Below are positions 2,361 through 50,213 of a stretch of 64,000 bases of DNA, piece by piece. The notes below the pieces were generated by a model, which worked only from the letters and a program-made list of their open reading frames with translations, did not search any database and had not been told where the DNA came from. The position numbers and the translations under genes are program-made. The stretch is taken from assembly GCA_965224275.1 (NCBI GenBank), contig CBDCYR010000005.1, positions 386,903-450,902 of the forward strand, in the 5' to 3' direction. The DNA is from Alphaproteobacteria bacterium. Its GTDB lineage: Bacteria; Pseudomonadota; Alphaproteobacteria; SHVV01. Within the stretch, counting starts at the first letter, position 1; each line of letters starts with the position of its first letter.

Positions 2361-3746
2361 ATGGGTCACAACGAGCAAATTGCCCGCAAAGCGTACGGCG
2401 CCTATCACCGCGACAAGACAGGCCATCGTGAAGACGAGGAACTCACCCACGTCGGGCCGGAAACACCGGGTGGCGAATACTTCCGCTGCTTCTGGCACCC
2501 TATCGCGTTAACCACCGACGTCGAAAGCGCGCCGCTACGGTTGCGCATTTTGGGCGAGGATCTGGTCTTGTTTCGCGACCTCGGCGGGCGGTTGGGCCTG
2601 CTCGAACTTCACTGTCCGCACCGCGGCACCTCGCTGGAATTCGGCAAGCTCGATGAAACCGGCATTCGTTGTTGCTATCACGGCTGGCACTTCGACATCG
2701 ACGGCACCATTTTGGAGACGCCGACCCATAGCGACGACAACAGTTTCAAGGATCGGATCTATCACGGTGCCTATCCCGTCCACGAATATGCCGGGATGAT
2801 CTGGGCCTATATGGGCCCGCCCGAGAGCACACCTGATTTTCCAATCTTCGATATCTACGAGAAGCCCGGCGTCACCCACACGGCGTACAAATTCTTTTGG
2901 CCCTGCAATTGGCTACAGATCCGCGAAAACGGTATGGACCCGTTGCACGCCAAATATCTCCACGCCGATGCCGGCCAGAAATTCCCGCCGTCGATGAAGG
3001 TGCTGCCGGTGCTGGATTTTCAGGAATCCCCGCTCGGCATTCTTTACATCTCGGTGCGGCGCATCGGTGAGATGCTTTACCTGCGCCAGAACGAAATCTT
3101 CCTGCCCACCGCCGATTGGGTGAACGGCCTGGAAGATGCCGAGGGTGAGACCGTGTTCGATCGGCGCGGCGGTGGCACTGATTTCGTGGTGCCGATCGAT
3201 GATGCCAATAGCTACTTTTTCATGCTGCTCGATGTCACCCGCGACCAGCACGACACCGGTCTCAATGGCTTGTGGGACCGCGACACCAGCGAGGAAATCG
3301 CGCTCGGCCTCAATGCCTCGATTCCAACCTCCGGCCAACACGGCGACCGGCCCTATGACGAACGTCAGCTCTCGGCCGGCGATTGGGATGCCTGCACCAG
3401 CCAGGGCACTATCCACGGTCATGGCGGCGAGAACCTCGGCATCAGCGACACTGGCGTCGTCAAGTTCCGCAACCTGATCCGCCGCGAGATCGACAAAGTC
3501 AAAAACGGACACGATCCCAAAGGCGTCTACCGCAACACCAACGGCCAGCTGATCCGCACCCACGGCCACAACACCGTGCTGCGCGTGCCCCAGGGCGGCT
3601 CGCCCGAAGCCGACCGCAAGATCTGCCAAGCCCTCTATCGTGAGTTTCTCACCGAAGTGATCGACGGCGACTTGCAGCAAACCCTCCCCGTCGACGAAAA
3701 ATGGCGCATCGCCCGCAAGCTCGTCGAGCGCATCACGGCGGATTAG
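2361..3746 (+). CDS. Rieske [2Fe-2S] non-heme iron oxygenase, alpha-only KshA/phthalate-family type
   Basis: RBS GAGGA then ATG 2361. Rieske motif CPHRG...CCYHGW. Catalytic motif NW..EN..DPLH....H. The ORF track extension 2145-2360 overlaps the upstream hydrolase and is rejected. Confidence 0.8.
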   Translation: MGHNEQIARKAYGAYHRDKTGHREDEELTHVGPETPGGEYFRCFWHPIALTTDVESAPLRLRILGEDLVLFRDLGGRLGLLELHCPHRGTSLEFGKLDETGIRCCYHGWHFDIDGTILETPTHSDDNSFKDRIYHGAYPVHEYAGMIWAYMGPPESTPDFPIFDIYEKPGVTHTAYKFFWPCNWLQIRENGMDPLHAKYLHADAGQKFPPSMKVLPVLDFQESPLGILYISVRRIGEMLYLRQNEIFLPTADWVNGLEDAEGETVFDRRGGGTDFVVPIDDANSYFFMLLDVTRDQHDTGLNGLWDRDTSEEIALGLNASIPTSGQHGDRPYDERQLSAGDWDACTSQGTIHGHGGENLGISDTGVVKFRNLIRREIDKVKNGHDPKGVYRNTNGQLIRTHGHNTVLRVPQGGSPEADRKICQALYREFLTEVIDGDLQQTLPVDEKWRIARKLVERITAD

Positions 3747-3761: not shown

Positions 3762-3849
3762 ATACCCCTCACCCCACCCCTCTCCCACAAGGGGAGAGGG
3801 AGTACATCAGCGCACGGAGAGGTTCCCTCTCCCCCTTGTGGGAGAGGGG
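3762..3849. repeat. REP-like palindromic intergenic element (CCCTCACCCC / CCCTCTCCC-N-GGGAGAGGG units) split by IS256 insertion; remainder at 5244-5270
   Basis: Seen in sequence. Imperfect inverted units CCCCTCTCCCacaaGGGGAGAGGG and CCCTCTCCCccttgtgGGAGAGGGG..GGGTGAGGGGG. Related copies at 20405-20500 and 21945-21992. Confidence 0.5.
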
Positions 3850-5243
3850 GGTTGTGTCTCGAAAGTGGTGGAAATTGGTTTTGGCGCCTCTCCGAGCGGG
3901 TTGAGTTTTGCGGCGGTCAGGCCGCGCGGTCAAGGGTTTCGTCGGCGATTAGCTGATCGAGGGTTTCCCATCCATCGACTTTGCGCATCTGGATTTGGCC
4001 GGAAGCGAGGAGCGCCCAGAGGAGCATCGGCACTGTTTCGGGACACGGCAGCACGGTCTGTGTTTTGATCCGGCGCTTGAACTCCTCGTTGAGACGCTCA
4101 ATGGCGTTGGTCGTTCGGGCTGATTTCCATTGGCTCTTGGACAGGCGCGTGAAGGTAAAGAGCTTGTCGCCCGCTTCTGCGAGGCTGTCCGCGACGGCCC
4201 TGCATTTCAGCCGCCACTTGCGGACAAACGCCTTGCGGCGGGTTTCCACCTCGGAGGCAGTGTCGGCATAGATCATATCGCGGTAATCTTCGCTCAGCTC
4301 GTCATGCATGTGTTTGGGAGCATGACCCAGAAGGTTGCGGTGCTTGTGCACGGTGCAGCGTTGAACGGGAAGGTCATCGCCCCAAAGCGCCGACAGAGCC
4401 GCCTCCAGTCCCGGCGCGCCATCGACGATGACAAACCCGGGCCGTTTCAGTCCACGCGCATCAAGGTCGTCGAGGAACTGGCGCCACGCCGCCTGGCTTT
4501 CTCCGCCCATATTCCCGATCGAAAGCAAGACCTTCTGGCCATCCCGGCGCACCCCTATAGCCGCGAGAACCGAGATGTTGGTGGCCTTGCGATCCAGTCG
4601 GGTCTTGATCACAGTGCCGTCAAGGATCAGCCGAACGATATCCTCATCCGCGAGGCCACGGCTGCACCAGGCGTCCCAATCGACCTTCACCTTGCGCCAC
4701 GCCCGGCTCACAACGTCCTTGCTCACAGCACCCCCGAAGAGCCCGAACAGCGCGCGTTTCACCCGCCGCGTGTTGGTTCCGGACAGATACACCGAAGCGA
4801 TCAGCGCCTCGGCCTTTCTGGTCAGCCGCTGGTAGCGCGGCAGCGCCCGCGAACGCCATTCCGACGCCCGACCGTCTTCCTCAACGATCCGTGCACGCGG
4901 CACGCTCACCCTCTCGGTCCCGAATGTCCCCGTCAGTTGCCGCTCCCGGTGCCCGTTCCGATACCCTTGCCGAAGCGCGTCCTCTCGACCGTATCGGCAG
5001 CGCCCGAGAAACTGCGCAAGTTCCTCCTCAAAAACGGCCTCGATCGTGGATCTGATGTTCTCCCGCAGCCGGTCCTCGAGCGGATCATAGCCGGCGTCAT
5101 TGGCCAGTAGCGAAAGCGCAGAAGTCTCGGTAGTGTTCTTCATGGCGTGATCTCCTTGGCGGTGCTAGCCGCCGGTTGGGTGGTTGTCTTGTCACCCGGA
5201 GATTACGCCATCCTCAAATTTCCACCACTTTCGAGACACAGCC
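3850..5243 (-). mobile_element. IS256-family insertion sequence, copy A (1394 bp), terminal IRs GG(T/C)TGTGTCTCGAAAGTGGTGGAAATT, 8-bp TSD GAGAGGGG
   Basis: Imperfect terminal inverted repeats at both ends. Identical flanking 8-mers GAGAGGGG at 3842-3849 and 5244-5251. Near-identical second copy at 53960-55353. Confidence 0.85.
3917..5143 (-). CDS. IS256-family (mutator-type) transposase, 408 aa
   Basis: Translation has the IS256 transposase architecture and DDE region. Differs from copy B by about 1 aa (S/C). Confidence 0.9.
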   Translation of the reverse strand: MKNTTETSALSLLANDAGYDPLEDRLRENIRSTIEAVFEEELAQFLGRCRYGREDALRQGYRNGHRERQLTGTFGTERVSVPRARIVEEDGRASEWRSRALPRYQRLTRKAEALIASVYLSGTNTRRVKRALFGLFGGAVSKDVVSRAWRKVKVDWDAWCSRGLADEDIVRLILDGTVIKTRLDRKATNISVLAAIGVRRDGQKVLLSIGNMGGESQAAWRQFLDDLDARGLKRPGFVIVDGAPGLEAALSALWGDDLPVQRCTVHKHRNLLGHAPKHMHDELSEDYRDMIYADTASEVETRRKAFVRKWRLKCRAVADSLAEAGDKLFTFTRLSKSQWKSARTTNAIERLNEEFKRRIKTQTVLPCPETVPMLLWALLASGQIQMRKVDGWETLDQLIADETLDRAA

Positions 5244-5281
5244 GAGAGGGGTAGGGTGAGGGGGTTTGTTTGTTCCTAGTA

Positions 5282-5827
5282 TCACTGATTCTCAAAAGCT
5301 CCAGCACCCACCCCCGCCAGCCGCTTGCGTAGCGTTGGCATCCAGCCGCCATTTTCGATGATCGTCAGCAATGCCGCATCGAGCGGTGGATAGTTGATCT
5401 CGCTGCCTCGGCTCACATTGCGAAACGTTCCGGTCCGAAAGTCGACGTCGAGTTCATCGCCGTCGGCCGCTTCATCGGCAACACCAGGACAGGCCGGCAG
5501 GATCGGCACCGCGCAGTTGATCGCGTTGCGAAAACTGCCGCGTGGGATCGATTCGACGACCAGGCCGAGCCCAAGGCCGGCGATTCCGATCAAGCCCTGA
5601 ATGTGCGGGTTGCCTTGCGCGAAGCGCCTGCCCGCAACAATGATGTCTCCCGGCGACACGTTCTTAGGAAAGTCGGGATCGAGACCGCACATGACGTGAT
5701 CGCGCAACACCTCCGGATCGGTTTCCCGCGCGATTGCAAAATGCAACGGCATGATGTCGCCGTCGATCGCGACATTGTCGCCGAAGTGCCAACAGCGGCC
5801 GCGATAGGTGAAGGTCACGGTTGCCAC
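5282..5827 (-). CDS. Aconitase-family small subunit (LeuD-like swivel domain; 3-isopropylmalate/dimethylmalate dehydratase small subunit-like)
   Basis: Motifs WHFGDNVAIDGDIMP and GxNFGxGSSRE-like core. Probable GTG start at ~5827, directly after the large-subunit stop (coupled). The longest ORF would start at 5878 but overlaps the large subunit by 47 bp. Confidence 0.6.
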   Translation of the reverse strand: MATVTFTYRGRCWHFGDNVAIDGDIMPLHFAIARETDPEVLRDHVMCGLDPDFPKNVSPGDIIVAGRRFAQGNPHIQGLIGIAGLGLGLVVESIPRGSFRNAINCAVPILPACPGVADEAADGDELDVDFRTGTFRNVSRGSEINYPPLDAALLTIIENGGWMPTLRKRLAGVGAGAFENQ

Positions 5828-5831
5828 CGCT

Positions 5832-7118
5832 TCAGTCCCCACCAAGCATGTCGCGGGGATCGACGATCTCGCCGGCAACCGCGGACGCCGCCACCGTCAG
5901 CGGACTCGCGAGATAAATATCTGCATCATTGGGGCCCAGCCGTCCGGGATCGTTGCGGGTTCCGGTATTGATCGAAACTTCGCCCGATGCCAGCGGCGCC
6001 ACCCGCCCGCCGGCGCAGGGGCCGCACCCCGGCGCGGTGAGGATCGCCCCGGCATCGACCAGCGTCTGCAGTAGCCCCTCATCCGCCGCACGGCGCCAGA
6101 TTTCCTGGGTTCCGGGGGTCACGAACAGGCGCACGCGGGGATGGATCACGCGGTTTGCGAGAATCGAGGCGGTATCGCGGATATCGTTCAACAGGCTCGA
6201 TGCACATGAGCCAACAAACGCATGGTGCACCGCCGTGCCGGCAACCTCGGATACCCCGACCACGTTGTCCGGCCGCGGTGGCGCCGCGACCTGCGGTTCG
6301 AGCAGGTTGACATCGTAACCGCCGCGCCACAGGAACGACGCATCGTCGTCGCTATAAGCGGGATCGAGATCACCGTCGATCCGGTCTTGCAAGTAGGCCA
6401 ACACAGCGTCGTCGGGCTCAACCAATACCGATTTCGCACCCAAATCGATCGGTGTATTGCACAACGTGAATCTTGCGTCGAGATCGATATCGGCCAGCGC
6501 GGCGCCCGCGAACTCAACCACCGTGTAGTCGACCAGGTCAGCATCGAAGTCGGCGATCAGCCGTTGCGCGACATCACGAATTGAGATCCCCGGTGTCATG
6601 CGGCCGGTAAGTTCGATGCGAACGGTTTCGGGCACCCGCAACCAGGCCGACCCACACGCCAACACCTCCGAGATTTCGACCAGCATCGCGATCCCAAGTG
6701 CACCCACGGCGCCGTAATTGGGGACGTGGGTGTCGTAGCCGGCCACGAACATGCCCGGTCGCACAAAGCCGAGTTCAACCGGGAAGACGTGCCCATGGCC
6801 GCCGCGGCCGACGTCGAAATGATTGTCGATACCAAACCGCGCCGCGATCTCGCGCACCTGTTTCTGCCGTTCGGCCGCTTGCGGTGAAACCGCGGTCGGC
6901 TCGTGATCGGTCACCAGCACCACTTTTTCGGGCGCGAACAGCTCGTCGACCCCTAACTCGTCAAGCGCTTTTGCGAAATTGACGACGTACCAGTCGTGGA
7001 CCGTGATCAACTCGGGTTCGGGAAACACGATATCGCCGGCCGCCGCATCGGTGCCGAGCACCCGCGATAGAATTTTCTCGGTCGCTGTCTGAGGCATGTC
7101 AGCGCCCGTACGGCTCAC
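5832..7118 (-). CDS. Aconitase-family large subunit (LeuC-like dehydratase large subunit)
   Basis: 428 aa with aconitase-family features (GSCASS, CGPCAG Fe-S ligand region). ATGA overlap with the upstream lyase gene. Confidence 0.8.
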   Translation of the reverse strand: MSRTGADMPQTATEKILSRVLGTDAAAGDIVFPEPELITVHDWYVVNFAKALDELGVDELFAPEKVVLVTDHEPTAVSPQAAERQKQVREIAARFGIDNHFDVGRGGHGHVFPVELGFVRPGMFVAGYDTHVPNYGAVGALGIAMLVEISEVLACGSAWLRVPETVRIELTGRMTPGISIRDVAQRLIADFDADLVDYTVVEFAGAALADIDLDARFTLCNTPIDLGAKSVLVEPDDAVLAYLQDRIDGDLDPAYSDDDASFLWRGGYDVNLLEPQVAAPPRPDNVVGVSEVAGTAVHHAFVGSCASSLLNDIRDTASILANRVIHPRVRLFVTPGTQEIWRRAADEGLLQTLVDAGAILTAPGCGPCAGGRVAPLASGEVSINTGTRNDPGRLGPNDADIYLASPLTVAASAVAGEIVDPRDMLGGD

Positions 7119-7984
7119 GCCTCGTAGCGTTCGTTCAATTCGAAATAGGCGTCGACGTCGACCAGACCGTCACGTTCGCCGGCCGATGCCAGTTGGTTCT
7201 TCATCGCGGCGCTGTGGCCATCGCGCTTGATCGTCGCCAAGACGTCAGCCATGGCTCGGATCGCGGCGCGTTGCACGTCGGCCGGATAGAGAATCATGCG
7301 ATAGCCGAGCGCACCGAGCTCCGCCGGCGGCATCACTGGTTCTTCACCGCCGCCACCGATATTGAACATCTTTGGCTCCGGAATCAGTGCCGCCAGCTCC
7401 TTGATCTCGGTCTTCGTGTGAATCGCTTCCACAAACACCATATCGGCGCCGGCGTCGAGATAGGCCCGCGACCGTTCGACCGCCGCGTCGAAGCCCTCAA
7501 CCTTGAGCGCGTCGGTACGGGCGATGATCAGAAGATCTTCGTTAACCCGGGCGTCGACAGCCGCCTTGATCTTGCCGCTCATTTCTTGGGTATTGATTAC
7601 CGCGAGATCATCGTAGAGCCCGCAGCGTTTGGGGAAATCTTGATCTTCGAGATGCAGACCGGCAACCCCGACGCGCTCAAACTCCATCACCGTGCGTCGC
7701 ACGTTGAGCGCATTGCCGTAGCCGGTGTCGGCGTCGGCCACCACTGGGATATCGGCGCTTTGGACGATCGTGGCGATACGACCGACCATCTCACTGAGAT
7801 CGACCAGGCCCAGATCGGGAAAGCCAAGACCCCGAGCGATCGAGCCGCCGCTGGCATGCGCACAGTCGAAACCCGCATCGGCAATCAACCGCGCCGACGT
7901 CGCGTCAAACGCGCTCGGCGCCAGCACCGCACCATCAGCAATCAATCGCCGCAATGTCGCAGCTCTGTTGGTCGAACCGTTCAT
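7115..7984 (-). CDS. Isocitrate lyase / PEP mutase superfamily enzyme (methylisocitrate lyase or 2,3-dimethylmalate lyase-like)
   Basis: Family-typical signature KRCGLYDDLAVINTQEM plus VEAIH.. region. Likely start at MNGSTNR (about 7984), not the ORF-track start at 8140. Confidence 0.7.
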   Translation of the reverse strand: MNGSTNRAATLRRLIADGAVLAPSAFDATSARLIADAGFDCAHASGGSIARGLGFPDLGLVDLSEMVGRIATIVQSADIPVVADADTGYGNALNVRRTVMEFERVGVAGLHLEDQDFPKRCGLYDDLAVINTQEMSGKIKAAVDARVNEDLLIIARTDALKVEGFDAAVERSRAYLDAGADMVFVEAIHTKTEIKELAALIPEPKMFNIGGGGEEPVMPPAELGALGYRMILYPADVQRAAIRAMADVLATIKRDGHSAAMKNQLASAGERDGLVDVDAYFELNERYEA

Positions 7985-8031
7985 CGCAAGTTGCCTAGCA
8001 CCAATCTTCAGATATTGGTCGAAACGACCCC

Positions 8032-9048
8032 TCACCCAACCGCAGAGCGCTGGTCTTCGGGAATCACTTCGCCCTTGACCACCATCGGCTCGTTGTCGAG
8101 ATAAACCGAACAATTGCGCATCGGGATATCGAGATGACACAGCGTATCGCGCGTGCCTCCGGCATCGTCGTTGGGCCCGGTTGAGAACATGAAATTGCCC
8201 AGGAAGGCACGGCCGTCATTGCCGTTGGTCTGCTGTTTGTCCAGCATCCCCAACGCTGTCCATTTGGCGCGTGGCTGTAAGCCCCACCCCACATGCGACA
8301 TCGCAAACCCATCGCGATCGTTATAGCTTTCGATAAACTCGCGCATGTAGTTGGCGTCGAAATCACCTGATATTTCAGTTATGTAGCCGTTTTCGAAGTC
8401 CACTCGGATGGGCGTCTGCACGTATGATTTGAACGGGAAGATGATGTCGCCGCGATCGATCACGATGGTGCCACGGGCGGTGGTTTCGTTCGGCCAGGTG
8501 GCGACGAACCCGGCGGGCCAGTGGTCCCAGTGCCCGGGTTCATCCGCATAGCCGTATTCATATAGAACCGGGTATTCCCCCAGATCGCATTCGAAAGCGG
8601 TGCCGGCTTCGGATTCAACCCGCATGGTCTTGGCGGCCTCGATCCGTTTACCCGCCGCTTGGACGCGCTGCTTGTCTTCTTCTTGCGGCATCATGCGCGC
8701 CAACGCTTCGGGGGGTTCGGTGACGTAGAGAATGCGTGTGCCGGCCGCCAGCACGTGCGGGCGCTCGCCGCCGCGCTGGAGGTGGAGCCCAACCAGATCG
8801 ACGACCAGATCGGCTTGGCGCATCGCCTCCATCGCGACGCCGTTGTCGCGTAGCCGCGTCTTACCGATATGCGGCTCCATATGCACCGCCTTGGCGCCGA
8901 TCTCGATGCAGGCGTTGTAGGCCGCTTTAACGTTCTCGGGCCGCGCCTCGGGTTTGGTCAAGACGACAACAGTCTCTTGTTCGTTGACGTTGCATAGGCG
9001 CAGGACCTCCGCCCACATCGATATCTGTTGCGACTCGCTGAGTGCCAT
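8032..9048 (-). CDS. M29-aminopeptidase-fold protein, NicX-like (candidate Fe(II)-dependent 2,5-dihydroxypyridine 5,6-dioxygenase)
   Basis: 338 aa; blocks EYGYADEPGHWDHWPAGF, HVGWGLQPRAKWTA, FLGNFMFSTGPN, CHLDIPMRNC resemble what I remember of NicX/M29 family. Assignment is by recollection, not a search. Confidence 0.4.
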   Translation of the reverse strand: MALSESQQISMWAEVLRLCNVNEQETVVVLTKPEARPENVKAAYNACIEIGAKAVHMEPHIGKTRLRDNGVAMEAMRQADLVVDLVGLHLQRGGERPHVLAAGTRILYVTEPPEALARMMPQEEDKQRVQAAGKRIEAAKTMRVESEAGTAFECDLGEYPVLYEYGYADEPGHWDHWPAGFVATWPNETTARGTIVIDRGDIIFPFKSYVQTPIRVDFENGYITEISGDFDANYMREFIESYNDRDGFAMSHVGWGLQPRAKWTALGMLDKQQTNGNDGRAFLGNFMFSTGPNDDAGGTRDTLCHLDIPMRNCSVYLDNEPMVVKGEVIPEDQRSAVG

Positions 9049-9081
9049 CGATCAGTCCCTGTCGTTCATCGGGCCGAACCG

Positions 9082-9378
9082 CTAATCCATGCCCTCGAAA
9101 ACGCGGATATCGCGCACCACCGAATCGTCGCCGAGTTTTTCGAGCGCGGCTTGGTAGCCATCACTGGAATAAGCGGCAACCGCGGCATCGAAACTCTCAA
9201 ACTCAAGCAACACGGTGCGTTCGTTCTTGCCCGCTTCGAACGCTTGCACGCGGCCACCGCGGGCCAGGATCTTGCCGCCGGCTGCCTGAATGGCGGGACC
9301 CGCGAGCTTGGCATATTCCGCCAGTGCATCCGGTTTGGAGATCGAGTGATAGGCCGAGATCCAGTATCCTTTAGCCAT
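9082..9378 (-). CDS. DUF1330-family small protein
   Basis: 98 aa; N-terminus MAKGYWISAYH..., typical of DUF1330. Confidence 0.55.
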   Translation of the reverse strand: MAKGYWISAYHSISKPDALAEYAKLAGPAIQAAGGKILARGGRVQAFEAGKNERTVLLEFESFDAAVAAYSSDGYQAALEKLGDDSVVRDIRVFEGMD

Positions 9379-9440
9379 GTTTTTCCTCCCTAGTTGATAT
9401 CGTAAACCTTAGCACGGCTGCGCTTGCAGAACGCAGCCCC

Positions 9441-10343
9441 TCAATCCATTCGGTAGATGCGTCGGGCGTTGTCGCGAAACAGCTTCACGCGCTCGTTTGA
9501 ACCCAGATCAGTGACGATTTCTGCGTAGCTGTCAAAGATCGTGTCGAAATCCGCCGCCAGGCTGTCGGGCGGGAAGTTGCTGCCGAACATCACGCGGTCG
9601 GTCCCGAACATCTCTATCGTCTCGCGCACGATCGGTCGGTTCGCATCCACCGACCAGGTGCCCCCATTGAGACCAAGGCCCGCGATCTTGACGGCAACGT
9701 TCGGATGCGCGGCGGCGGCAGCCATGGCCTGGCGCCAGCCTTCCAGTCCTTGCTCACTGCGATCGGTGGGGAAACCGGCGCTGCTCAGGATGATCTGGAT
9801 GCCTGGAAAATCCGCGGCCAGGTCGGCGGCCTCGTGCAGGTGCCAGTAGTTGGTCTGAAGATCGAACGACAGACCGTATTTCTCGAGCAGCGCAAAACCG
9901 GCCCGCCACGTCGGATCGCCCATCGACCCCGGCCCTCCGGGCTCGCTGGTTTGCGGTGTTGCCGAGGTGCGCGGTTTGTGGCGGATGCCGCGCACCATGG
10001 GAAACGCGGCCTGCGCCGCAAGAACGTCCTCGGCATCGTCGCGATCGAGCCAGGCCTGCGCAACGATCACACTGGGCAGCCCATGCGCGCCGATCATATC
10101 CTGAAGCCAGCGCGTTTCACCGACCGGATCGGCCGGATTCCACTCCGCTTCCACGTGTACGGTCGCGACCACGTTCTGATTGACCGTAACCGAGCGATAG
10201 TCAGACGGCAGAAACGTGCGCCGGATCGGTGCGGGATCGCCATAGCGATGCGGCCCAGCCGGCTCGTCGCACAGCCACGGGTAGTAATTGCGTTCGAGAT
10301 CCCACAGATGCATGTGGGCATCGACGATCTCCGCGGCTCTCAA
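9441..10343 (-). CDS. Amidohydrolase-2 (PF04909) family metal-dependent hydrolase/decarboxylase
   Basis: N-terminal IVDAHMHLW. C-terminal FGSNFP..D, typical of TIM-barrel amidohydrolase 2. Confidence 0.7.
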   Translation of the reverse strand: MRAAEIVDAHMHLWDLERNYYPWLCDEPAGPHRYGDPAPIRRTFLPSDYRSVTVNQNVVATVHVEAEWNPADPVGETRWLQDMIGAHGLPSVIVAQAWLDRDDAEDVLAAQAAFPMVRGIRHKPRTSATPQTSEPGGPGSMGDPTWRAGFALLEKYGLSFDLQTNYWHLHEAADLAADFPGIQIILSSAGFPTDRSEQGLEGWRQAMAAAAAHPNVAVKIAGLGLNGGTWSVDANRPIVRETIEMFGTDRVMFGSNFPPDSLAADFDTIFDSYAEIVTDLGSNERVKLFRDNARRIYRMD

Positions 10344-10486
10344 GCCATCGCTCCTTCCGATCCCATTTTACACACAAGGCGAACTCTCCCAGATGCCGGC
10401 GGACTCAACGGGTGATCGTATGAGCCCACTCGTCTAGACTTCCCTGGCTCCGATGTCGAAGGCGACTGTTCTGAGGAGGTCCGTGA

Positions 10487-11653
10487 ATGGCGGTCAGCGA
10501 ACGCGAGGCTGGTTACGCAGGTGTCATCGATGCGGTGGCATCGGAACTCAGCGAAACCCGTGTTCCGGTAACCCAGGCCCGCCATATGCCGGGCTACATC
10601 TACACCTCGCCGGAGATCTTCCGCCTCGAGAAGGAGCGGATTTTCACCAGGGATTGGCTGTGCGTCGCGCGCGTCGAGGAAATTGAACGCCCCGGCGATT
10701 ACCTAACGCTGCGCATCCTCGGCGAGCCCCTGATCCTCACCCGCGACGACGAGGGCGATATCAACGTATTCGCCAACGTCTGCCGCCATCGTGGCGTCGA
10801 GGTCGCCCGCGGCCACGGCAACACGTCGATGTTCAGCTGCCCGTATCACGGCTGGCGCTACGACCTGACCGGCCGCCTCGCCGGCGCCGCTTATATGGCC
10901 GAAGCCGAGCATTTCGACTCCACCAATTGCCGCCTCAAGCCAATCCTGTTCGGCGTCTGGCGCGGCTGGATTTTTATTAACTTCGATGCCAATGCCGAAC
11001 CGCTGGACGATTTCGTGGCGCCGCTCGAACAGGATTTCGGCATCCTCGAAATGGACCGTTGCCGGCTATTCGCCAAGCACCAGGTGGAGATCGATTGCAA
11101 TTGGAAGTTCGTGGTCGAGAACCTCACCGACATCTACCACTCCGAGGTTCTCCACTCTAAAACCTTCGCCGAATCGATCGACACCGAAAAGGTCGAATAC
11201 AAACTCACCGCCCGCGGCGGCAACAGCTCGTTCTACGACGCCGCACCGCACAATCCGAGCGGTAAGCCCTTGTTCGGCAAGATGCCGTGGATGACCGACC
11301 AGCCCGAAAGCTTCGCGCGATCGGGTTTCCTGGCGCCGAACTTCGACATGTTCAGCCGTGTCGACGAGGCCCACCCGGTCATCATCTGGCCGGTCTCGCC
11401 GACCAAAACCCACATTCTCATCTACCAGCTATTCCCAGCCGAGTTCTCCGCGACCAGCAATTTCGAGCAAAAGGCGCAGCTCTACCTGGATTACATGATC
11501 GCCATCGCCGAGGAAGATCGCGAGATGATCGAATCCCTCCAAAACGCTATGGACTCGACCTTGTTTGAGCCGGGCTGGATGTCCTACCTGGAGCGCGGCG
11601 TCCACCACGTCATCACCCACTACCTCGATCGCATGTTCCCGTTAGAACGCTAA
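10487..11653 (+). CDS. Rieske non-heme iron oxygenase alpha subunit (GbcA/CntA/Stc2-like group)
   Basis: CRHRG...CPYHGW Rieske motif. NWKFVVENLTDIYHSEVLH catalytic Fe motif. Confidence 0.8.
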   Translation: MAVSEREAGYAGVIDAVASELSETRVPVTQARHMPGYIYTSPEIFRLEKERIFTRDWLCVARVEEIERPGDYLTLRILGEPLILTRDDEGDINVFANVCRHRGVEVARGHGNTSMFSCPYHGWRYDLTGRLAGAAYMAEAEHFDSTNCRLKPILFGVWRGWIFINFDANAEPLDDFVAPLEQDFGILEMDRCRLFAKHQVEIDCNWKFVVENLTDIYHSEVLHSKTFAESIDTEKVEYKLTARGGNSSFYDAAPHNPSGKPLFGKMPWMTDQPESFARSGFLAPNFDMFSRVDEAHPVIIWPVSPTKTHILIYQLFPAEFSATSNFEQKAQLYLDYMIAIAEEDREMIESLQNAMDSTLFEPGWMSYLERGVHHVITHYLDRMFPLER

Positions 11654-12722: not shown

Positions 12723-14168
12723 CTACTTCTGATATGCCGCGCGGCGGTCGACCAGGCGCTTGGGCTTGCCCTCGCGTCCCCCCACATTGGCGATCTCGTC
12801 GAGACTGCCTTGCGCCACGATTTCGACGTCGACGCCGAGCCCGAGGTCACCCTTGAGCAACTCCGCCATCTTTTCCTTGAGGCCTTCGGCCGATCCGGCA
12901 TCGTTGCGGACCTCGATCTGCACCGTCATTTCCTCGCGCTTGACGCCGTTTTTCACCACGGCATCGGCGATGCAGATCCACTCACCGGTCGTGCGCTCAT
13001 CGCTTTGCACCGCGTTGAGGCAAGCCATCGGGTTGAGATTGACGCCGCGGATCTTGACCATGTCGTCCGAGCGGCCGAGGAAATGGTCCATGCGGCGAAA
13101 ATTGCTGCCGCATTCGCAGGTATCGGTGTGCAAAATGCGCCCGAGATCGCGCAGATTGAAGCGGATGATCGGCGGCATCGAGCGGTGGAACACCGTCACC
13201 ACCATGTTGCCGGTCTCACCATGCGGCACGGGTTCGCCGGTTTCGGTATCGACGATCTCGAAATACATACAGTCCTCCTGGAAGTGGAGGCCGTTCTTGA
13301 ATTGGCACTCGAAGGCGCCATCGCCCATCTCGTTAGTGCCGTAATTGTCATACACATTGCAACCCAGCGCCTCTTCCAGCTCGGCCCGCAACTTGCCCTC
13401 GGTGTCGGGGCCGAGAAACGCCAGCACGAACTTCGTGTTGAGCTCGCGGAAATCGCGGCCGAGTTCCTCGCGGCTCGCTTGCGCCAGGCGCAACATGTAT
13501 TCGGGAAACGAGCACCACAGATTGGTGCCGTAATCGAACGCGATTTCCATCTGTCGCCGGCTCGGCGTCACCACGCCGGTGCCCGTGGTCAGTGGCAAGA
13601 TGCCGAGATAATCGTGCACACCCTTGTAAACGCACCACCCGAGATTGCCGAGCGCCAGACTAACCGGAATCTGCATGACATCGCCGGGCCGGGCGCCCAA
13701 TACATAGAGCGTTCGCGCCGCCGTGAGCCCATTGAGTTCCCACTCCTGCGGCGTGTAAAGCGTTACCCGGGGCTTGCCCGTGGTGCCACCGCTGGTCTGC
13801 ATCTTAAAGGGCGTCGCTGCGAAGTCGGCCGGGCCGACATTGTGGAACTCGCCGAACGGCGGGGTCTCGAGTTGATCCTGTTTGACATCGTCGGAATTAT
13901 AGGTCGGGACCTTGTGGCTATCGTCGATGCTCTTGATGTCGTCGGGATTGAGACCGGCCGCCTGCCAGCGTTTGCGGTAGAAAGGGTTATCCCAGCCCAG
14001 CTTGACGCAGCGCAGGAAGCGTTCGTTTTGCAGCGCCCGTACACGCTCGGCCGGCCACTTATAAACGGTGTCGACGAACACGTCGGGCACCGGATAATCC
14101 TGGTGCAGCTGCGCCCAGTCTATCGAGTTGTGGTAGATCGGCAGCTTGCTCGCCGGAAACTCACTCAT
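12723..14168 (-). CDS. Phenylacetate-CoA ligase (PaaK)-family adenylate-forming enzyme, copy 1
   Basis: Motif TSGGTTGKPRV and PaaK-like C-terminal domain. Probable start at the second in-frame ATG (MSEFPASK, about 14168) with a purine-rich RBS. The ORF-track start is 14222. Confidence 0.7.
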   Translation of the reverse strand: MSEFPASKLPIYHNSIDWAQLHQDYPVPDVFVDTVYKWPAERVRALQNERFLRCVKLGWDNPFYRKRWQAAGLNPDDIKSIDDSHKVPTYNSDDVKQDQLETPPFGEFHNVGPADFAATPFKMQTSGGTTGKPRVTLYTPQEWELNGLTAARTLYVLGARPGDVMQIPVSLALGNLGWCVYKGVHDYLGILPLTTGTGVVTPSRRQMEIAFDYGTNLWCSFPEYMLRLAQASREELGRDFRELNTKFVLAFLGPDTEGKLRAELEEALGCNVYDNYGTNEMGDGAFECQFKNGLHFQEDCMYFEIVDTETGEPVPHGETGNMVVTVFHRSMPPIIRFNLRDLGRILHTDTCECGSNFRRMDHFLGRSDDMVKIRGVNLNPMACLNAVQSDERTTGEWICIADAVVKNGVKREEMTVQIEVRNDAGSAEGLKEKMAELLKGDLGLGVDVEIVAQGSLDEIANVGGREGKPKRLVDRRAAYQK

Positions 14169-14340
14169 CGCCCAAATTCCCCCCGCCTTTTGTTCCTTCG
14201 GTTGCGCACACATCTCACTCATCTAGACGCGCTGGTACAAGTCATCGTCGCGCGTTTGTGCTATCCAACGCTCGTACAGGCAAGGCTAACATCCGTCCGC
14301 AACGGGTTGAAGTCACGCCACGTTACGAATGGGGAGGATC

Positions 14341-15210
14341 ATGAGGGTTTTTGACTGCCACTCTCATTGGAGCACGGAACGCGGTTACATTTTTCAAGAT
14401 CCGAAAGAACGCGCCAACCAGGAAGAGATCTGGGGCACCACTGCCGAGTTTCAGACCGAACAGGAAATGACCGACACGTTCCGCAAAAACAATGTGCGGA
14501 CCGTGCTCGATCTCGCGCTAACCGTTTGGATGGACGATCTCGACGAAATCAAGGCCGCGCATGATTACACCTTCGAGGTGCAGCGTCGAAACAGTGACGT
14601 AATTTTCGGCCACTGGTTGTCGTTCGATCCGCGTATCGGCAAGGACGGCATCAAGGAATATGAACGCGCCATCGCAGCTGATGCCGGTTTCATCGGCTTC
14701 GGCATCATCGGCCAAACCGCGGGCGGACTTCCGGCCAGTGATCCGATCTGGGACCCCTTCTACAAAACCTCGATCGATGCCGGTATTCCCGTCCTCATCC
14801 ATTGCGGGCTCACCGGCATCGGCCAGGGTCTGCCCGGCGGCAAGGGCATCCTGCTCGATGACGGCCACCCCCGCCACATCGATGCCGTCGCCGCGCGATT
14901 CCCCGAGCTCAAAATCCTCGCGGCGCGCCCCGCCTACCCCTGGCAGGACGAAATGATCGCCATCCTGCTGCACAAGGGCAACGTTCATTACGAACTGCAC
15001 GGCTGGTCACCCAAGACATTGCCACCGCAACTGCTGCGCGAGATTGGCGGCCGCTTGCAGGACCGCATCATGTTCGGCTGCGATTTTCCGGTGCTCAAAT
15101 TCGAGATGATGATAGAGCGCTGGCAGGGCTTGGGTTTCTCCGACGAAGTGCTCGAAAAGGTGTTCCATAAGAATGCCGAAGCCTATTTCCCGAAAGCGGC
15201 GATCAACTAG
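14341..15210 (+). CDS. Amidohydrolase-2 (PF04909) family protein
   Basis: GGAGGA RBS before ATG 14341 (MRVFDCHSHW). C-terminal FGCDFP. Confidence 0.7.
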   Translation: MRVFDCHSHWSTERGYIFQDPKERANQEEIWGTTAEFQTEQEMTDTFRKNNVRTVLDLALTVWMDDLDEIKAAHDYTFEVQRRNSDVIFGHWLSFDPRIGKDGIKEYERAIAADAGFIGFGIIGQTAGGLPASDPIWDPFYKTSIDAGIPVLIHCGLTGIGQGLPGGKGILLDDGHPRHIDAVAARFPELKILAARPAYPWQDEMIAILLHKGNVHYELHGWSPKTLPPQLLREIGGRLQDRIMFGCDFPVLKFEMMIERWQGLGFSDEVLEKVFHKNAEAYFPKAAIN

Positions 15211-16148: not shown

Positions 16149-18221
16149 ATGGCCTTTCGGATCGGTGTCGACGTCGGCGGCACATTCACCGATTTCCTGC
16201 TGCTCGATGGTGAGGGCACGGCAACGGTCTACAAGGTGCTATCGACACCCGATGATCCATCGCGAGCGGTGCTCGATGGCCTCGCGCGAATGGCCGATGA
16301 TGTGGGCCTCGACTTAGGCCAATTCATCGCCGGCATTGTCCTCATCGTCCACGGCACCACAGTCACGACGAACGCGGTGCTGACCGGCAAGACCTCGCCC
16401 ACCGGACTGCTCACGACGCGGGGCTTCCGCGACGCCCTGCAAATGCGGCGCGGCGTTCGCGAGGTGCAATACGACAACAAATATCCAGCCGCCGAACCGC
16501 TGGTCCCGCGCTGGTTGCGCCGCCCGGTGAGTGAGCGGGTCGACGCGCAAGGGGCGATCGTCCAGCCGCTTGACCTGGCTGACGTCGACGATGCGATCGT
16601 GCGGTTCAAAGGCGCCGGCATTGATGCGGTCGCGATCTGCTTCATGCACGGTTACGCCAATAGCAATCACGAACAGGCCGCCGCCGATCGTGTCGCCCAG
16701 CTCATGCCCCAGGCCTACCTCTCGGTATCGAGCCAGGTGCTGCCGCAGGTGCGTTTCTACGAACGGATCAGCACCACCGTCCTCAACGCCGCCGTCGGTC
16801 CCATCCTCAGCCGCTACCTCGCCAACCTCACCGCGCGGCTTGCCGATCAGGCCTTCGCGGGCGTGCTGCTCATTATGAAATCGAACGGCGGGGTCACCTC
16901 GCCCAAGGTTGCCTCCGATCTCGCCGCGAGCACCCTGCTGTCGGGTCCGGCCGCGGCGCCGGTCGCCGGCCTCGCCTATGCCACACCACATGAAACAGGT
17001 GATTTCATCACCATCGACATGGGCGGTACCAGTTTTGATGCTGCCCTGGTTAAAGATGGCACGCCGGCGATCACCACCGATAGCCGGGTCAACCGGCATG
17101 CGCTTAGCCTCGCCAGTATGGAGATCAACACCATCGGCGCTGGTGGCGGCTCGATCGCCTGGATCGATGATGGTGGTCTGTTGCGGATGGGACCCGACAG
17201 CGCCGGCGCCAGTCCCGGTCCTGTCTGCTACAGCCGCGGCGGGACCGCCCCGACCTGCAGTGACGCCGATCTCGTGCTCGGCTATCTCGATGCCGATTTC
17301 TTCGCCGGCGGGACCATCGCGCTCGATCACGCTGCCGCCGAGCGGGCAATCGCCGAACAGATCGCCAAGCCGCTCGAGATGACCACCCTCGACGCGGCCT
17401 ACGGCATGTATCACTTGATGAACGTCAATATGGCTTCGGCGATCCGCGAAATCTCCGTACAAAAAGGCTATGACCCGCGCGACTTTCTGCTGATCTGCGC
17501 CGGCGGCGCCGGGCCCCTTCACGCCGCCGCCATTGCCGCCGAGCTTGAGGTTCGGCACATCCTCATTCCCAAGGACTCGTCGATCTTCTGCGCCGCCGGG
17601 ATGTTGCACTCCGATCTCAAACACGATTTCGTTCGCAGCTACCACACCGAATTCGCAGCCTCAGCGATCGACACCGCCCGATTTGCGACCCTGATCGGCG
17701 AGATGCAAAACGCCGGCGATACAATCTTGGCGGCCGAGGGCGTCGCAGCGGCCGATCGCGACGCCGAATTTTCGCTCGACCTGCGCTATGTCGGCCAATA
17801 TCACGAAGTTAACGTCTCGGTTTCAGCGGCCCAGCTGGCCCCACCTGACTTCGAGGCGATCGCGACAGCTTTTCACGCCGCCCACGACCGGCTTTACGGT
17901 TATTCCCTGGCCGACGATGATCGCCAGGTGACCCTGGTAAACATTCGCATGACGGCTATCGGCAGAACCGAAAAGCCCGAACTTCGCGCTGACGCTGCGC
18001 GGGGCAGCGTCGATGCCGCCCGCAAGGGTCAACGCCAGGTCTTCCTTTCCTCGCAAATGGCGTTCTCTACGCTCGATGTCTACGACGGCGACGCTATGGG
18101 ATCCGGCCATGCGCTCAAGGGCCCCGCCATCATCGAACAACGCAACACCACCATTCTGGTGCCACCGGATCACCACCTGACGTGTGATGCGTTGGGCAGT
18201 TTTCTGTTGAGCGCGTCATGA
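16149..18221 (+). CDS. hyuA: Hydantoinase/oxoprolinase family A subunit (HyuA-like, ATP-dependent)
   Basis: 690 aa. N-terminus MAFRIGVDVGGTFTDF is the characteristic HyuA start. Stop overlaps the hyuB start (ATGA). Confidence 0.85.
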   Translation: MAFRIGVDVGGTFTDFLLLDGEGTATVYKVLSTPDDPSRAVLDGLARMADDVGLDLGQFIAGIVLIVHGTTVTTNAVLTGKTSPTGLLTTRGFRDALQMRRGVREVQYDNKYPAAEPLVPRWLRRPVSERVDAQGAIVQPLDLADVDDAIVRFKGAGIDAVAICFMHGYANSNHEQAAADRVAQLMPQAYLSVSSQVLPQVRFYERISTTVLNAAVGPILSRYLANLTARLADQAFAGVLLIMKSNGGVTSPKVASDLAASTLLSGPAAAPVAGLAYATPHETGDFITIDMGGTSFDAALVKDGTPAITTDSRVNRHALSLASMEINTIGAGGGSIAWIDDGGLLRMGPDSAGASPGPVCYSRGGTAPTCSDADLVLGYLDADFFAGGTIALDHAAAERAIAEQIAKPLEMTTLDAAYGMYHLMNVNMASAIREISVQKGYDPRDFLLICAGGAGPLHAAAIAAELEVRHILIPKDSSIFCAAGMLHSDLKHDFVRSYHTEFAASAIDTARFATLIGEMQNAGDTILAAEGVAAADRDAEFSLDLRYVGQYHEVNVSVSAAQLAPPDFEAIATAFHAAHDRLYGYSLADDDRQVTLVNIRMTAIGRTEKPELRADAARGSVDAARKGQRQVFLSSQMAFSTLDVYDGDAMGSGHALKGPAIIEQRNTTILVPPDHHLTCDALGSFLLSAS

Positions 18222-21992: not shown

Positions 21993-22060
21993 TGAGGTCG
22001 CAAGATCGCCCGTTGTGCAGATTTGCTCCCGGCAAACCACGGGTTGAAAGGAAAACAATC

Positions 22061-23359: not shown

Positions 23360-23467
23360 GGCATTGTCGACGTAATCCTCAAAATGCTCGAGGCGAGCGC
23401 TAAACCAAAAATCCGCGCGCCAAGCGCGGTACAAGTGTAGAAACCATAGGAAACCTGGGGAGGATTC

Positions 23468-24217
23468 ATGGGCAAGCTCGACGGAAAAGTTGCGTTCATC
23501 ACCGGCGCTAGCCGCGGCTTGGGGAAAGCCATGGCGATCGCGTTCGCTGCGGAAGGCGCCGCACTGGCGGTCGGCTACAATTCAAGCGCTGAGGGCGCCA
23601 ACGATACGGTCGCAACCATCCGCAAGGCGGGCGGCAATGCTGAAGCCTACCAAGGCGACATCACCGTTCCTGAAGTGGTCGACGGGATCGTCACCGGGGT
23701 GGTCGACCAATTCGGCACCGTCGACGTCCTGGTTAACAATGCCGGCCTCGTAAACGCCTCGCCGCTCAACGAAATGTCGGTTGAAATCTGGGATGCCATG
23801 TTCGCGATCCATGTGCGGGCCATGTTCCTGTGCTCGCGAGCCGTGCTACCGCACATGCTGGCTCAGAAGTCAGGCAACATTATCAACATGGGCGGCACTT
23901 TCGGGGTCACCGGGATGGAGAACTTCACTCATATGTCGGCTGCCAAAGCTGCGATGATCGGCTTCACCCGCGCGCTGGCCAAAGAAGCCGGGCCCAACGG
24001 GATTCGCGTCAACTGCCTGACGCCGGCAATGATTCGTGGTGAAACCACCGCCAATATGCCGCAGGATTATTTGGAATCGTTGCGTCAGCGCTATCCATTG
24101 CGCCGTCTTGGCGAAGTTGAGGACGTCAATTCCTGTGCCTTGTTCCTGGCATCGGACGAGTCCTCGTTCGTTACCGGACAAAACCTCGCGCCCGCCGGCG
24201 GCGAAGTGATGCCCTAA
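23468..24217 (+). CDS. Short-chain dehydrogenase/reductase (FabG-like SDR)
   Basis: ITGASRGLGKAMA and NNAG motifs. Confidence 0.8.
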   Translation: MGKLDGKVAFITGASRGLGKAMAIAFAAEGAALAVGYNSSAEGANDTVATIRKAGGNAEAYQGDITVPEVVDGIVTGVVDQFGTVDVLVNNAGLVNASPLNEMSVEIWDAMFAIHVRAMFLCSRAVLPHMLAQKSGNIINMGGTFGVTGMENFTHMSAAKAAMIGFTRALAKEAGPNGIRVNCLTPAMIRGETTANMPQDYLESLRQRYPLRRLGEVEDVNSCALFLASDESSFVTGQNLAPAGGEVMP

Positions 24218-24293
24218 GCGAAATAAGTCTATTGGCCGTGGCCCGTGGGTCGTCGGCCCCATTCAACAGCACGAACCGCGCGGAGTAATGACG

Positions 24294-25124: not shown

Positions 25125-25149
25125 TAGATCAAGACCGGAGATACATGCC

Positions 25150-25539: not shown

Positions 25540-25566
25540 GCGTCCTAGACGTCCTAGGCGGCCTAA

Positions 25567-26498: not shown

Positions 26499-26551
26499 TA
26501 AGCGGCCCGGACGACTGAAACGGCTTAGCGGAGGAGCAACACGGAGTCGCC

Positions 26552-27337: not shown

Positions 27338-27352
27338 AGCCTGCGCGTAGAC

Positions 27353-28564: not shown

Positions 28565-28598
28565 CGGAACAAACCGATCAACAGGGGAGTTACAGCCC

Positions 28599-50199: not shown

Positions 50200-50213
50200 A
50201 CCGCTGCTTCTAA

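Follow-up and report, generated by a model that had tools for sequence, protein, structure and literature searches.

Four closely spaced genes on the minus strand

The four minus-strand genes considered here occupy positions 5282-9048 of a 64,000-nucleotide stretch of DNA, referred to below as the window, from an Alphaproteobacteria bacterium of the lineage SHVV01 (assembly GCA_965224275.1, contig CBDCYR010000005.1). A preliminary description of the window had noted genes for a NicX-like protein, a lyase and a LeuCD-like dehydratase, and when open reading frames were listed and translated, all four were found where it had placed them. The same frames were called independently on two long-read metagenome contigs that encode identical proteins (L001, 350 kb, and L002, 10 Mb). 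In order of transcription, they encode a NicX-family dioxygenase (8032-9048, 338 amino acids), a PrpB-like C-C lyase of the phosphoenolpyruvate (PEP) mutase/isocitrate lyase (ICL) superfamily (7115-7984, 289 amino acids), a LeuC-like large subunit of the aconitase family (5832-7097, 421 amino acids from the ATG at 7097, or 428 if translation begins at the GTG at 7118), and a LeuD-like small subunit of a non-canonical subfamily (5282-5827, 181 amino acids).

The tight packing of the genes was borne out, with consecutive spacers on the same strand of 47, 17 (or an overlap) and 4 nt, and the junctions were redrawn in places. The lyase starts at the ATG at 7984, 47 nt from the NicX stop codon in the junction sequence, and not at 8140. 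Its stop codon (TGA, 7117-7115) shares bases with the GTG at 7118 to form GTGA, and the ATG at 7097, 17 nt past that stop, is the likelier start of LeuC because family profiles start matching there; the ATGA overlap previously described between these two genes is accordingly either a GTGA overlap or a 17-nt gap. LeuD had been said to start right after the LeuC stop, which is correct as to the close spacing, and its exact start is the GTG at 5827, 4 nt past that stop, and the 181-residue product that results is found unchanged in the protein collection. More than four genes probably belong to the operon: a DUF1330 gene and an Amidohydro_2 gene (described below) lie upstream on the same strand. 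A megablast search of positions 5282-11653 against plasmids returned no match.

The NicX homolog retains the dioxygenase active site

The only PDB relative of the protein encoded at 8032-9048 is NicX; residues 2-334 align with residues 2-348 of the Pseudomonas putida enzyme (PDB 7CN3, E = 4.1e-103), and precomputed annotation assigns the product to PF26233. In P. putida NicX, the iron is liganded by His265, Ser302, His318 and Asp320, and Glu177, His189 and Arg293 are essential for positioning the substrate (PMC7910607). All seven residues are kept in the window protein, as H252/S289/H305/D307 and E164/H176/R280, respectively, and their columns are invariant in an alignment of 20 homologous sequences. 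No M29 peptidase family was matched in Pfam at E<=10, and the protein matched no NCBIfam family. The NicX assignment of the preliminary description held when the protein was compared with both NicX and the M29 aminopeptidases, and the protein did not score as an ordinary aminopeptidase T. Judged by these residues, 8032-9048 is a genuine NicX-type non-heme Fe(II) dioxygenase with an intact active site and a predicted 5,6-dioxygenase activity on 2,5-dihydroxypyridine, yielding N-formylmaleamate.

The surroundings of the active site are less uniform. The gate loop that carries Leu104-His105 in P. putida NicX has a two-residue insertion here, with a Leu-His pair (L88-H89) one alignment position off, the gate partners C76 and E308 are replaced by Ile and Asp, and clade-specific changes are found around the loop at positions 74, 75, 106 and 107. 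We considered these changes as a marker of a substituted rather than an unsubstituted substrate, and rejected this use of them since relatives without LeuCD carry them too.

The organism of the window has a second NicX (P0072, 58% identical), encoded beside SnoaL, Rieske and amidase genes (L098, 10001-11050) with no NicE or NicF nearby. Location of that copy in a canonical nicDFE cluster would have argued for a different substrate here; it is not so located, and the comparison is uninformative. Two NicX genes (344 and 351 amino acids) also occur together on one 10-kb contig of a metagenome-assembled genome (MAG; L090, 1289-7353).

The lyase is related to, and distinct from, PrpB

The product of 7115-7984 matches PF13714 (PEP_mutase/ICL) over profile positions 1-239 of 240 (6.1e-49), and its best PDB matches are to PrpB (6T4V, 3e-50; 1MUM, 1e-49), followed by petal death protein (2e-47) and the single solved dimethylmalate lyase, which is fungal (DMML, 3FA3, 1e-44); PA4872 (9e-39) and oxaloacetate hydrolase (OAH) are also significant PDB relatives. 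The comparison with DmlA and PrpB proposed earlier therefore has PrpB as the closest relative, ahead of dimethylmalate lyase, with a score that nevertheless falls below the PrpB equivalog cut-off (TIGR02317, 267.6 bits against 354.4; for NF008455, 224.1 against 353). Catalytic roles in PrpB have been assigned to the loop Cys, Arg158, Glu115, Asp58, Asp85/87, Lys121 and Tyr43 (bioRxiv 10.1101/2025.01.06.631558). The lyase shares the fold of PrpB and retains its Cys/Arg/Glu/Asp/Lys catalytic set, including the Mg-binding Asp/Glu residues and the Lys-Arg-Cys loop, but differs in having His for Tyr43, KRCGL for KRCGH, and, in a substrate-side strand, NIGGGG for NITEFG. It also differs in context, as none of the methylcitrate-cycle partners prpC, prpD, acnD and prpF is among the annotated genes of the 64-kb window. 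We conclude from these features that the lyase is PrpB-like but belongs to a distinct subfamily with a KRCGL loop. Homologs of about 55% identity carry the NCBI name oxaloacetate decarboxylase. Phe186, Leu234 and Pro236, the putative C2-methyl pocket of PrpB, look conserved here, which would favor a substrate that yields pyruvate, such as citramalate; we give this observation little weight.

The LeuD-like subunit lacks the Ser-Ser-Arg motif

The LeuC-like protein is a typical member of its family. It matches PF00330 (Aconitase, 1.4e-65) and just exceeds the cut-off of NF001614 (389.1 bits against 385), but reaches only about half the cut-offs of the LEU2 (313 against 611) and HacA (306 against 550) equivalogs; its best PDB matches are Methanocaldococcus jannaschii HacA (4KP2, 2.6e-80) and the large subunit of isopropylmalate isomerase (IPMI, 5e-75). 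The three cluster cysteines, in GSC and CGPC segments that align to HacA, are kept together with the DH, D-T-H and Arg residues, and the protein is a canonical archaeal-type large subunit of a predicted [4Fe-4S] hydro-lyase.

The LeuD-like partner is more unusual. It is related to the small subunit of the M. jannaschii isopropylmalate/citramalate isomerase (3VBA, 9e-36) and falls just under the cut-off of the LeuD/DmdB family TIGR02087 (105.8 against 108.95), but well under those of leuD (91 against 246) and HacB (92 against 230), and it has no match to PF00694. Where LeuD has F-G-C-G-S-S-R-E-H-A, this protein has F-A-Q-G-N-P-H-I-Q-G; its substrate loop is also longer, and the replacement of G-S-S-R-E by G-N-P-H-I is well anchored in alignments to 3VBA, 1V7L and 2PKP. 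In aconitase, S642 of the Ser-Ser-Arg motif is the catalytic base and R644 is the substrate-binding Arg. The Asn-Pro-His (NPH) motif is kept in all orthologs, and also in relatives linked to RraA-like genes (below), and because every ortholog conserves it, it is not a sign of decay.

No leuA, leuB or other partner of the leucine pathway is among the annotated genes of the window. The preliminary description had allowed that the lyase and LeuCD pair might cluster with orthologs from propionate or leucine metabolism; scores below the equivalog cut-offs and the lack of prp or leu neighbors instead set the pair apart from those genes, as it had expected.

The arrangement recurs in related loci

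A genome scan with a NicX alignment yielded 80 loci, which were screened with the window's proteins, and metagenome contexts were added for close homologs of NicX, LeuC and the lyase. NicX, with or without the lyase, followed by LeuC and LeuD, recurs in six sequence-distinct metagenomic versions with NicX identities of 60-100%. All four genes are present in L091/L092/L093 (with a lyase of 89% identity that was seen on 18 contigs from several samples) and in L087/L088 (NicX 72%, lyase 64% and LeuC 75% identical); in L100, lyase-LeuC-LeuD lies at one contig end, and the fetched stretch contains no NicX. The order NicX-LeuC-LeuD without the lyase is found in L003, L084 and L090, and L083 has a LeuC remnant right after NicX. 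The recurrence in six sequence-distinct versions means that the arrangement is not a chance neighborhood.

The flanking genes are also partly constant. A convergent gene for a Rieske oxygenase of 461 residues (Rieske461) lies directly after LeuD in L003, L084, L088, L090, L091 and L100. Of the loci named above, only L083 lacks it there, and a RutD-like hydrolase gene comes next in all but L003 and L090. L091 carries the whole supercluster without the insertion sequence (IS) that the window has after LeuD, in which genes for a caprolactamase-like HydA, short-chain dehydrogenases/reductases (SDRs), an Amidohydro_2 protein, a PaaK-like ligase, Rieske386 and the NicX operon are joined by Rieske461, the hydrolase, a Mo-hydroxylase, a 2-oxoglutarate oxygenase and a TRAP transporter, HydB being beyond the fetched stretch. 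In a neighbor-joining tree, the LeuCD-linked NicX proteins fall within one branch of 12 leaves, and the window's NicX is in a clade of eight that comprises five LeuCD-linked proteins, that of L083 with its LeuC remnant, and two without LeuCD; the L090 copy is nearby.

Other NicX loci are built differently. This LeuCD was in none of the 78 other NicX loci, among which NicF was found in 66, NicD in 58 and NicE in 48. When Pfam-verified NicF, NicE, NicD and NicC of a Pseudomonas locus (L046) were used as tblastn queries, no NicF or NicE homolog was detected at E<=1e-3 in the 64-kb window or in 13 related loci, the only match being to a weakly NicD-like hydrolase, and no Pfam domain of NicF or NicE type appeared in a scan of the window. 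An unrelated lineage (MAG Proteobacteria SKS3.bin69; L016, 526-16337) has a different PrpB-like lyase gene directly upstream of a 49%-identical NicX, in a cluster with NicC-, NicD- and NicF-like genes, no NicE, and a canonical LeuCD pair 7 kb upstream, and provides independent, weaker support for a lyase acting after NicX. The nearest genome matches are one Alphaproteobacteria MAG and one Defluviicoccus MAG, and the conserved alternative lower branch suggested by these loci has so far been seen only in uncultured Alphaproteobacteria.

NPH-type LeuCD genes are usually paired with another C-C lyase

Among the 150 representative clusters nearest to the LeuD-like protein (P0392-P0541), 45 have an x-x-H motif and 35 the canonical Ser-Ser-Arg, the motif being unreadable in 54. 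The x-x-H variants include NPH (13), KPH (5), HPH (4), NFH, KAH and HGH (3 each), and others. LeuD-like proteins with x-x-His form a broad and apparently uncharacterized branch, of interest independently of the NicX operon.

Using the LeuD-like alignment, we scanned metagenomes and screened 48 loci. Sequence upstream of LeuC was available for 27 loci, and in 21 of these 27 an RraA-like gene (HMG/CHA aldolase family) lies directly upstream of LeuC on the same strand. HydA-like genes are near LeuCD in about 15 of the 48 loci (12 also with HydB-like genes), and ABC-transporter genes in several. The three-gene unit of RraA-like aldolase, LeuC-like and NPH-type LeuD-like protein is widespread (L089, L101-L141; e.g., L104, 8039-10516), often beside hydantoinase/oxoprolinase-type HydAB and an ABC transporter, and one might speculate that it represents an alternative pair resembling oxalomesaconate hydratase and CHA aldolase.

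A PrpB-like lyase takes the partner position in L100, L137 and L145, so that a C-C lyase gene of one kind or the other almost always stands before the NPH-type LeuCD genes. Two of these loci (L137, 994-3685; L145, 586-7109) are minimal modules of lyase, LeuC and NPH-type LeuD with a carboxylate transporter (MFS or TAXI-TRAP), joined in L145 by an IclR regulator; neither of the two short contigs carries NicX. Such modules would suit a cell that takes up an unsaturated acid, hydrates it and cleaves the product. The constant feature of the NPH-type family is accordingly a hydro-lyase paired with a C-C lyase, as would be expected for hydration of an unsaturated acid followed by cleavage of the hydroxy acid. 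When the LeuD-like protein was compared with plasmids by tblastn, only distant matches were found (<=38% identity), the sole suggestive one being a Halomarina plasmid on which LeuCD adjoins an ICL-family gene.

A candidate lower branch of 2,5-dihydroxypyridine catabolism

Nicotinate, picolinate, nicotine and hydroxypyridines are all funneled into 2,5-dihydroxypyridine, which in its taught fate passes through NicX, a deformylase, an amidase and maleate isomerase to fumarate. We give about even odds to the reading that this operon encodes ring cleavage and the lower pathway of a 2,5-dihydroxypyridine-type (maleamate-type) route whose ending is non-canonical. The NicX homolog, with its strong homology and conserved catalytic residues, would open the ring of 2-pyridone-5-ol between C5 and C6 to give an N-formyl-maleamate-type product, from which the formyl and amide groups might be removed by the RutD-like alpha/beta-hydrolase and the Amidohydro_2 candidates described below. 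The resulting cis-ene-dicarboxylate, either maleate or a C3/C4-substituted form such as citraconate, would not be isomerized to fumarate by a NicE-type enzyme. Instead, the [4Fe-4S] LeuCD-like hydro-lyase would hydrate it to an (R)-2-hydroxy acid of the D-malate or D-citramalate type, which the PrpB-like Mg-dependent lyase would cleave to glyoxylate or pyruvate and a short carboxylate, such as acetate. In the upstream steps, the Mo-hydroxylase, Rieske oxygenases and TRAP transporter are probably used, in which case the route would start from a pyridine carboxylate; the candidates we considered are picolinate-like acids, methyl- or alkyl-pyridine carboxylates, and vitamin B6 catabolites. The part of this scheme that would be new is the conserved alternative lower branch, since the NicX step itself is known.

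By function, the closest system is the maleamate pathway of the nic and pic clusters (nicX-nicD-nicF-nicE in P. putida; picD-picE-picF-picG in Alcaligenes faecalis), with which the NicX step is held in common and the ending is not. The shared element is a NicX-family Fe(II) dioxygenase with the same Fe ligands and substrate hydrogen-bonding residues, and the pic clusters also have a Mo-hydroxylase, a Rieske oxygenase and an alpha/beta-hydrolase in the neighborhood. In contrast, the isochorismatase-type amidase (NicF/PicF) and the maleate cis-trans isomerase (NicE/PicG) are absent from the window and related loci, and it is a LeuCD-like hydratase and a PrpB-like lyase that follow NicX; moreover, the Amidohydro_2 protein beside NicX is not PicC-like, and the Rieske enzymes are alpha-only, unlike the multi-component PicB. 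The dipicolinate (dip) cluster was rejected as a model, since the dip route needs neither Mo cofactor nor maiA.

The preliminary description had drawn on the 2,3-dimethylmalate branch of anaerobic nicotinate catabolism. In nicotinate fermentation by Eubacterium barkeri, the two-subunit aconitase-family DmdAB hydrates a substituted maleate and Dml, of the ICL/PEP-mutase superfamily, then yields pyruvate and a short acid. The two enzyme superfamilies and their order of action are alike, and the parallel is one of enzyme logic only, but the LeuD-like protein is not of the canonical LeuD/DmdB type, lacking Ser-Ser-Arg, and the lyase is closer to PrpB than to dimethylmalate lyase. The context also differs, being aerobic and oxygenase-rich: oxidative ring cleavage would supply the substrate here, where E. 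barkeri relies on reduction and B12 mutase steps. A second parallel is provided by maleate hydratase (EC 4.2.1.31; HbzIJ of the hydrolytic gentisate pathway of Pseudomonas alcaligenes), and by archaeal isopropylmalate isomerase/homoaconitase enzymes, which have a maleate-hydrating side activity. In the window, too, a two-subunit LeuCD-type enzyme would act after a maleate-yielding ring cleavage, and the best structural relatives of its subunits are archaeal HacA and IPMI, but a dedicated lyase follows in the window where D-malate dehydrogenase follows in the gentisate pathway. No named maleate hydratase or dimethylmaleate hydratase appeared among the PDB entries or named homologs of the LeuC- and LeuD-like proteins. 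The hydrate-and-cleave logic matches that of both DmdAB/Dml and the gentisate-pathway maleate hydratase, and a hydratase and lyase standing in for maleate isomerase (NicE) at the end of an aerobic maleamate pathway is a simpler and better fit than a hybrid of aerobic and anaerobic routes. Of the hybrid or novel N-heterocycle route proposed earlier, the non-canonical pyridine-ring route is therefore a fair reading, given a genuine NicX and a linkage conserved in, and confined to, one clade, whereas the aerobic/anaerobic hybrid fits less well. Searchable literature contained no paper joining 2,5-dihydroxypyridine, NicX or maleamate with maleate hydratase, LeuCD/isopropylmalate, a PrpB-like or methylisocitrate lyase, or citraconate.

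Several observations weigh against the proposed lower branch. The LeuD-like subunit is without the catalytic Ser and the neighboring Arg, and may therefore support a chemistry other than simple maleate hydration. This LeuCD is most often partnered by an RraA-like aldolase, an enzyme that acts on 4-hydroxy-2-oxo acids and not on malate-type substrates. Three of the six versions have no lyase, which must thus be dispensable or replaceable. Absence of nicE from the window does not imply its absence from the genome, because nicE is likewise not nearby in 30 of the 78 other NicX loci and in Alcaligenes the isomerase gene lies at another genomic site. Nor was a clear maleamate amidase identified. 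Finally, the most constant neighbor of this NicX clade is a PaaK-like ligase, and CoA-transferase and enoyl-CoA hydratase genes are nearby, which hints at CoA-dependent chemistry that our model leaves unexplained.

The most probable alternative keeps the same architecture but gives the LeuCD-like enzyme and the lyase roles other than plain maleate hydratase and hydroxy-acid lyase. The NPH subunit may bind a group other than a carboxylate (an oxo-acid arm, say, or the maleamate amide); alternatively, the enzyme may form an oxaloacetate-type product by dehydrating a dihydroxy acid. The PrpB-like protein would then cleave or decarboxylate 2-oxo acids in the manner of PA4872 or oxaloacetate hydrolase, and so match the role of the RraA-like protein. 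The invariance of NPH across the subfamily and the wide spread of x-x-H variants are consistent with this alternative, as are the RraA-like aldolase/decarboxylase gene in the usual upstream position, the oxaloacetate decarboxylase names of the 55%-identical homologs, the significant matches to PA4872 and OAH, and the lack of an evident separate maleamate amidase. On the other hand, the lyase retains the loop Cys that serves as proton donor in true lyases and matches PrpB better than PA4872 (3e-50 against 9e-39), and the LeuC active-site residues are otherwise canonical, and we consider this alternative unlikely.

It is also conceivable that the LeuCD-like enzyme and lyase serve another substrate stream in a mosaic island and are only co-located or co-regulated with NicX, for example as the finish of a pathway fed by the phthalate-dioxygenase-like Rieske enzyme and the hydrolase, in the manner of an oxalomesaconate-hydratase/aldolase-like pair. 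The window is IS-rich and crowded with paralogs of Rieske, Amidohydro_2 and TRAP genes; LeuD is regularly followed by the convergent Rieske461 gene and, except in L003 and L090, by that of the hydrolase; the LeuCD subfamily occurs mostly without NicX; and the close NicX relatives in L004 and L085 have no LeuCD. However, NicX and LeuC-like genes lie on the same strand, separated by short spacers or by the lyase, in all six versions, and even L083 has its LeuC remnant right after NicX, a persistence across rearrangements that argues for a shared pathway. We judge an independent role of the pair to be slightly less probable again. The last possibility, that these are ordinary PrpB and LeuCD genes, or that 8032-9048 encodes an M29 aminopeptidase, with no meaning for a pathway, accords with the top NCBIfam names (prpB and the 3-isopropylmalate dehydratase family) but is very improbable in view of the equivalog scores, the missing LeuD catalytic motif, the lack of prpC/prpD/acnD and leuA/leuB in the 64 kb scanned, the NicX match with intact Fe ligands, and the conserved NicX synteny.

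If the hydratase-lyase ending after NicX is correct, clusters without nicE or nicF would no longer be scored as incomplete, and the capacity to degrade pyridines would be read differently from genomes and metagenomes. A wider and more tentative proposal, which we think has somewhat less than an even chance, is that the LeuD-like branch with His for Arg and no Ser forms a "hydrate and split" module with a C-C lyase, RraA-like in most cases and PrpB-like in some, and that its union with NicX created a new ending of pyridine catabolism, needing neither maleate isomerase nor CoA, in which maleate or an alkyl- or methyl-maleate is converted to glyoxylate or pyruvate and a short acid; this may open C3/C4-substituted pyridines to degradation beyond the canonical NicE route. 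With a hydratase-lyase ending after NicX, the widespread, unstudied LeuCD-like subfamily with an altered catalytic motif would gain its first physiological context, and the enzymes would be candidates for making D-malate- or D-citramalate-type chiral acids. Each of the three is a small, soluble protein for which a simple assay exists, which makes the proposal directly testable.

Neighboring genes in the window

The first gene of the NicX strand (9441-10343, minus strand, 300 amino acids) encodes an Amidohydro_2 hydrolase (PF04909, 3e-44), whose best NCBIfam match, L-fucono-1,5-lactonase, is far below the cut-off (86.8 bits) and whose PDB matches (6UVZ, 4DLF) are weak. It resembles the LigI/fuconolactonase group and is a candidate amide or formyl hydrolase; the gene is conserved ahead of NicX in L091 and L087, and L084 retains remnants of it. 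We considered it as a 3,6-dihydroxypicolinate decarboxylase of the PicC/ACMSD type and rejected this assignment in view of its likeness to the lactonase group and its lack of a match to the PicC-like open reading frames of Alcaligenes and Bordetella pic loci. The window contains five Amidohydro_2 paralogs in all (9441-10343, 14329-15210, 41466-42602, 51396-52325 and 58925-59881), and the PicC-like frames resemble only that at 41466-42602 and, more weakly, those at 51396-52325 and 58925-59881.

Between this gene and NicX lies the DUF1330 gene (9082-9378, minus strand, 98 amino acids, PF07045), with a GGGAGG ribosome-binding site before its ATG. The 62-nt spacer separating it from the Amidohydro_2 gene contains an inverted repeat, GCTGCG-ttctgcaa-CGCAGC, at about 9415-9440, with no T-run. 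In another locus (L094, 8698-9873), where no NicX accompanies them, DUF1330 precedes a 79%-identical lyase, and a TRAP system and three VanA-type Rieske genes lie alongside. The window, too, has this Rieske trio (33090-38433).

Divergent from the operon, a plus-strand gene (10487-11653) encodes a Rieske oxygenase alpha subunit of 388 amino acids (PF00355, PF00848) related to GbcA (NF058607, 157.8 bits, below cut-off) and carnitine monooxygenase CntA (6e-41). Homologs of 49-55% identity are near NicX in L003, L004, L083, L085, L087 and L090. One could speculate that this GbcA/CntA-like protein points to demethylation of homarine or trigonelline, a subject on which the literature gave nothing usable.

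On the other side of the operon, a convergent plus-strand unit holds three genes. Rieske461 (2361-3746) is a phthalate-dioxygenase-like alpha subunit of 461 amino acids (PDB 7FJL, 1.5e-46; also 7FHR, a putative phthalate 4,5-dioxygenase) and a candidate ring hydroxylase acting before NicX. The RutD/PcaD-like alpha/beta-hydrolase (1517-2347, 276 amino acids) scores below the RutD cut-off (TIGR03611, 168 bits against 238.5), with Est1 and RutD (3V48) as PDB relatives. It is 32% identical over 105 amino acids to the NicD of L046 (E = 3.5e-9) and, as the only, weak, relative of NicD in the window, is a candidate N-formylmaleamate deformylase. The Mo-hydroxylase large subunit (28-1494; xanthine dehydrogenase/carbon monoxide dehydrogenase (CODH) family), noted earlier at the window start, was confirmed there as part of this unit, which the IS256 element described next now separates from LeuD. 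The window edge leaves the C-terminal 488 of its 772 amino acids. Its NCBIfam matches (glyceraldehyde dehydrogenase alpha, CODH large subunit, XdhA) are all below cut-off, and the full 772-residue gene, with Ald_Xan_dh_C/MoCoBD domains, is present on L001, L002, L084 and L091.

The IS256 element (3849-5244, minus strand; transposase 3917-5143, Transposase_mut 1.7e-72, NF033543) sits in the spacer of the convergent LeuD-like and Rieske genes, and its flanks align to L091, where the spacer is an uninterrupted 141 bp. Because it lies between convergent genes, the insertion interrupts no gene, and it is not part of the pathway. An inverted copy at 53959-55354 matches it with 99.86% identity over 1396 bp, and the two bracket about 48.7 kb of catabolic genes, including the NicX operon, in a layout like that of a composite transposon. 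An IS5-family element of about 940 bp is present in five copies that are 98.8-100% identical (25557-26500, 29468-30404, 38396-39339, 50210-51160 and 56676-57619), together with a 111-bp fragment (46939-47049), and one copy truncates the third of the three tandem VanA-type Rieske oxygenase genes (35369-38433).

Further along the window are two PaaK-like adenylate-forming ligases (12723-14222 and 20535-21911) and a caprolactamase-like ATP-dependent lactamase pair, HydA/HydB (16149-19984), whose scores of 709 and 439 bits fall short of the equivalog cut-offs. Positions 22013-29498 hold a block of genes for Amidohydro_3, SDR, CN_hydrolase, enoyl-CoA hydratase, family III CoA-transferase and alpha/beta-hydrolase proteins. 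The presence of HydA/HydB in the conserved supercluster suggests a lactam-opening step in the same island, and the block is kept beside this NicX clade in L084 and L085.

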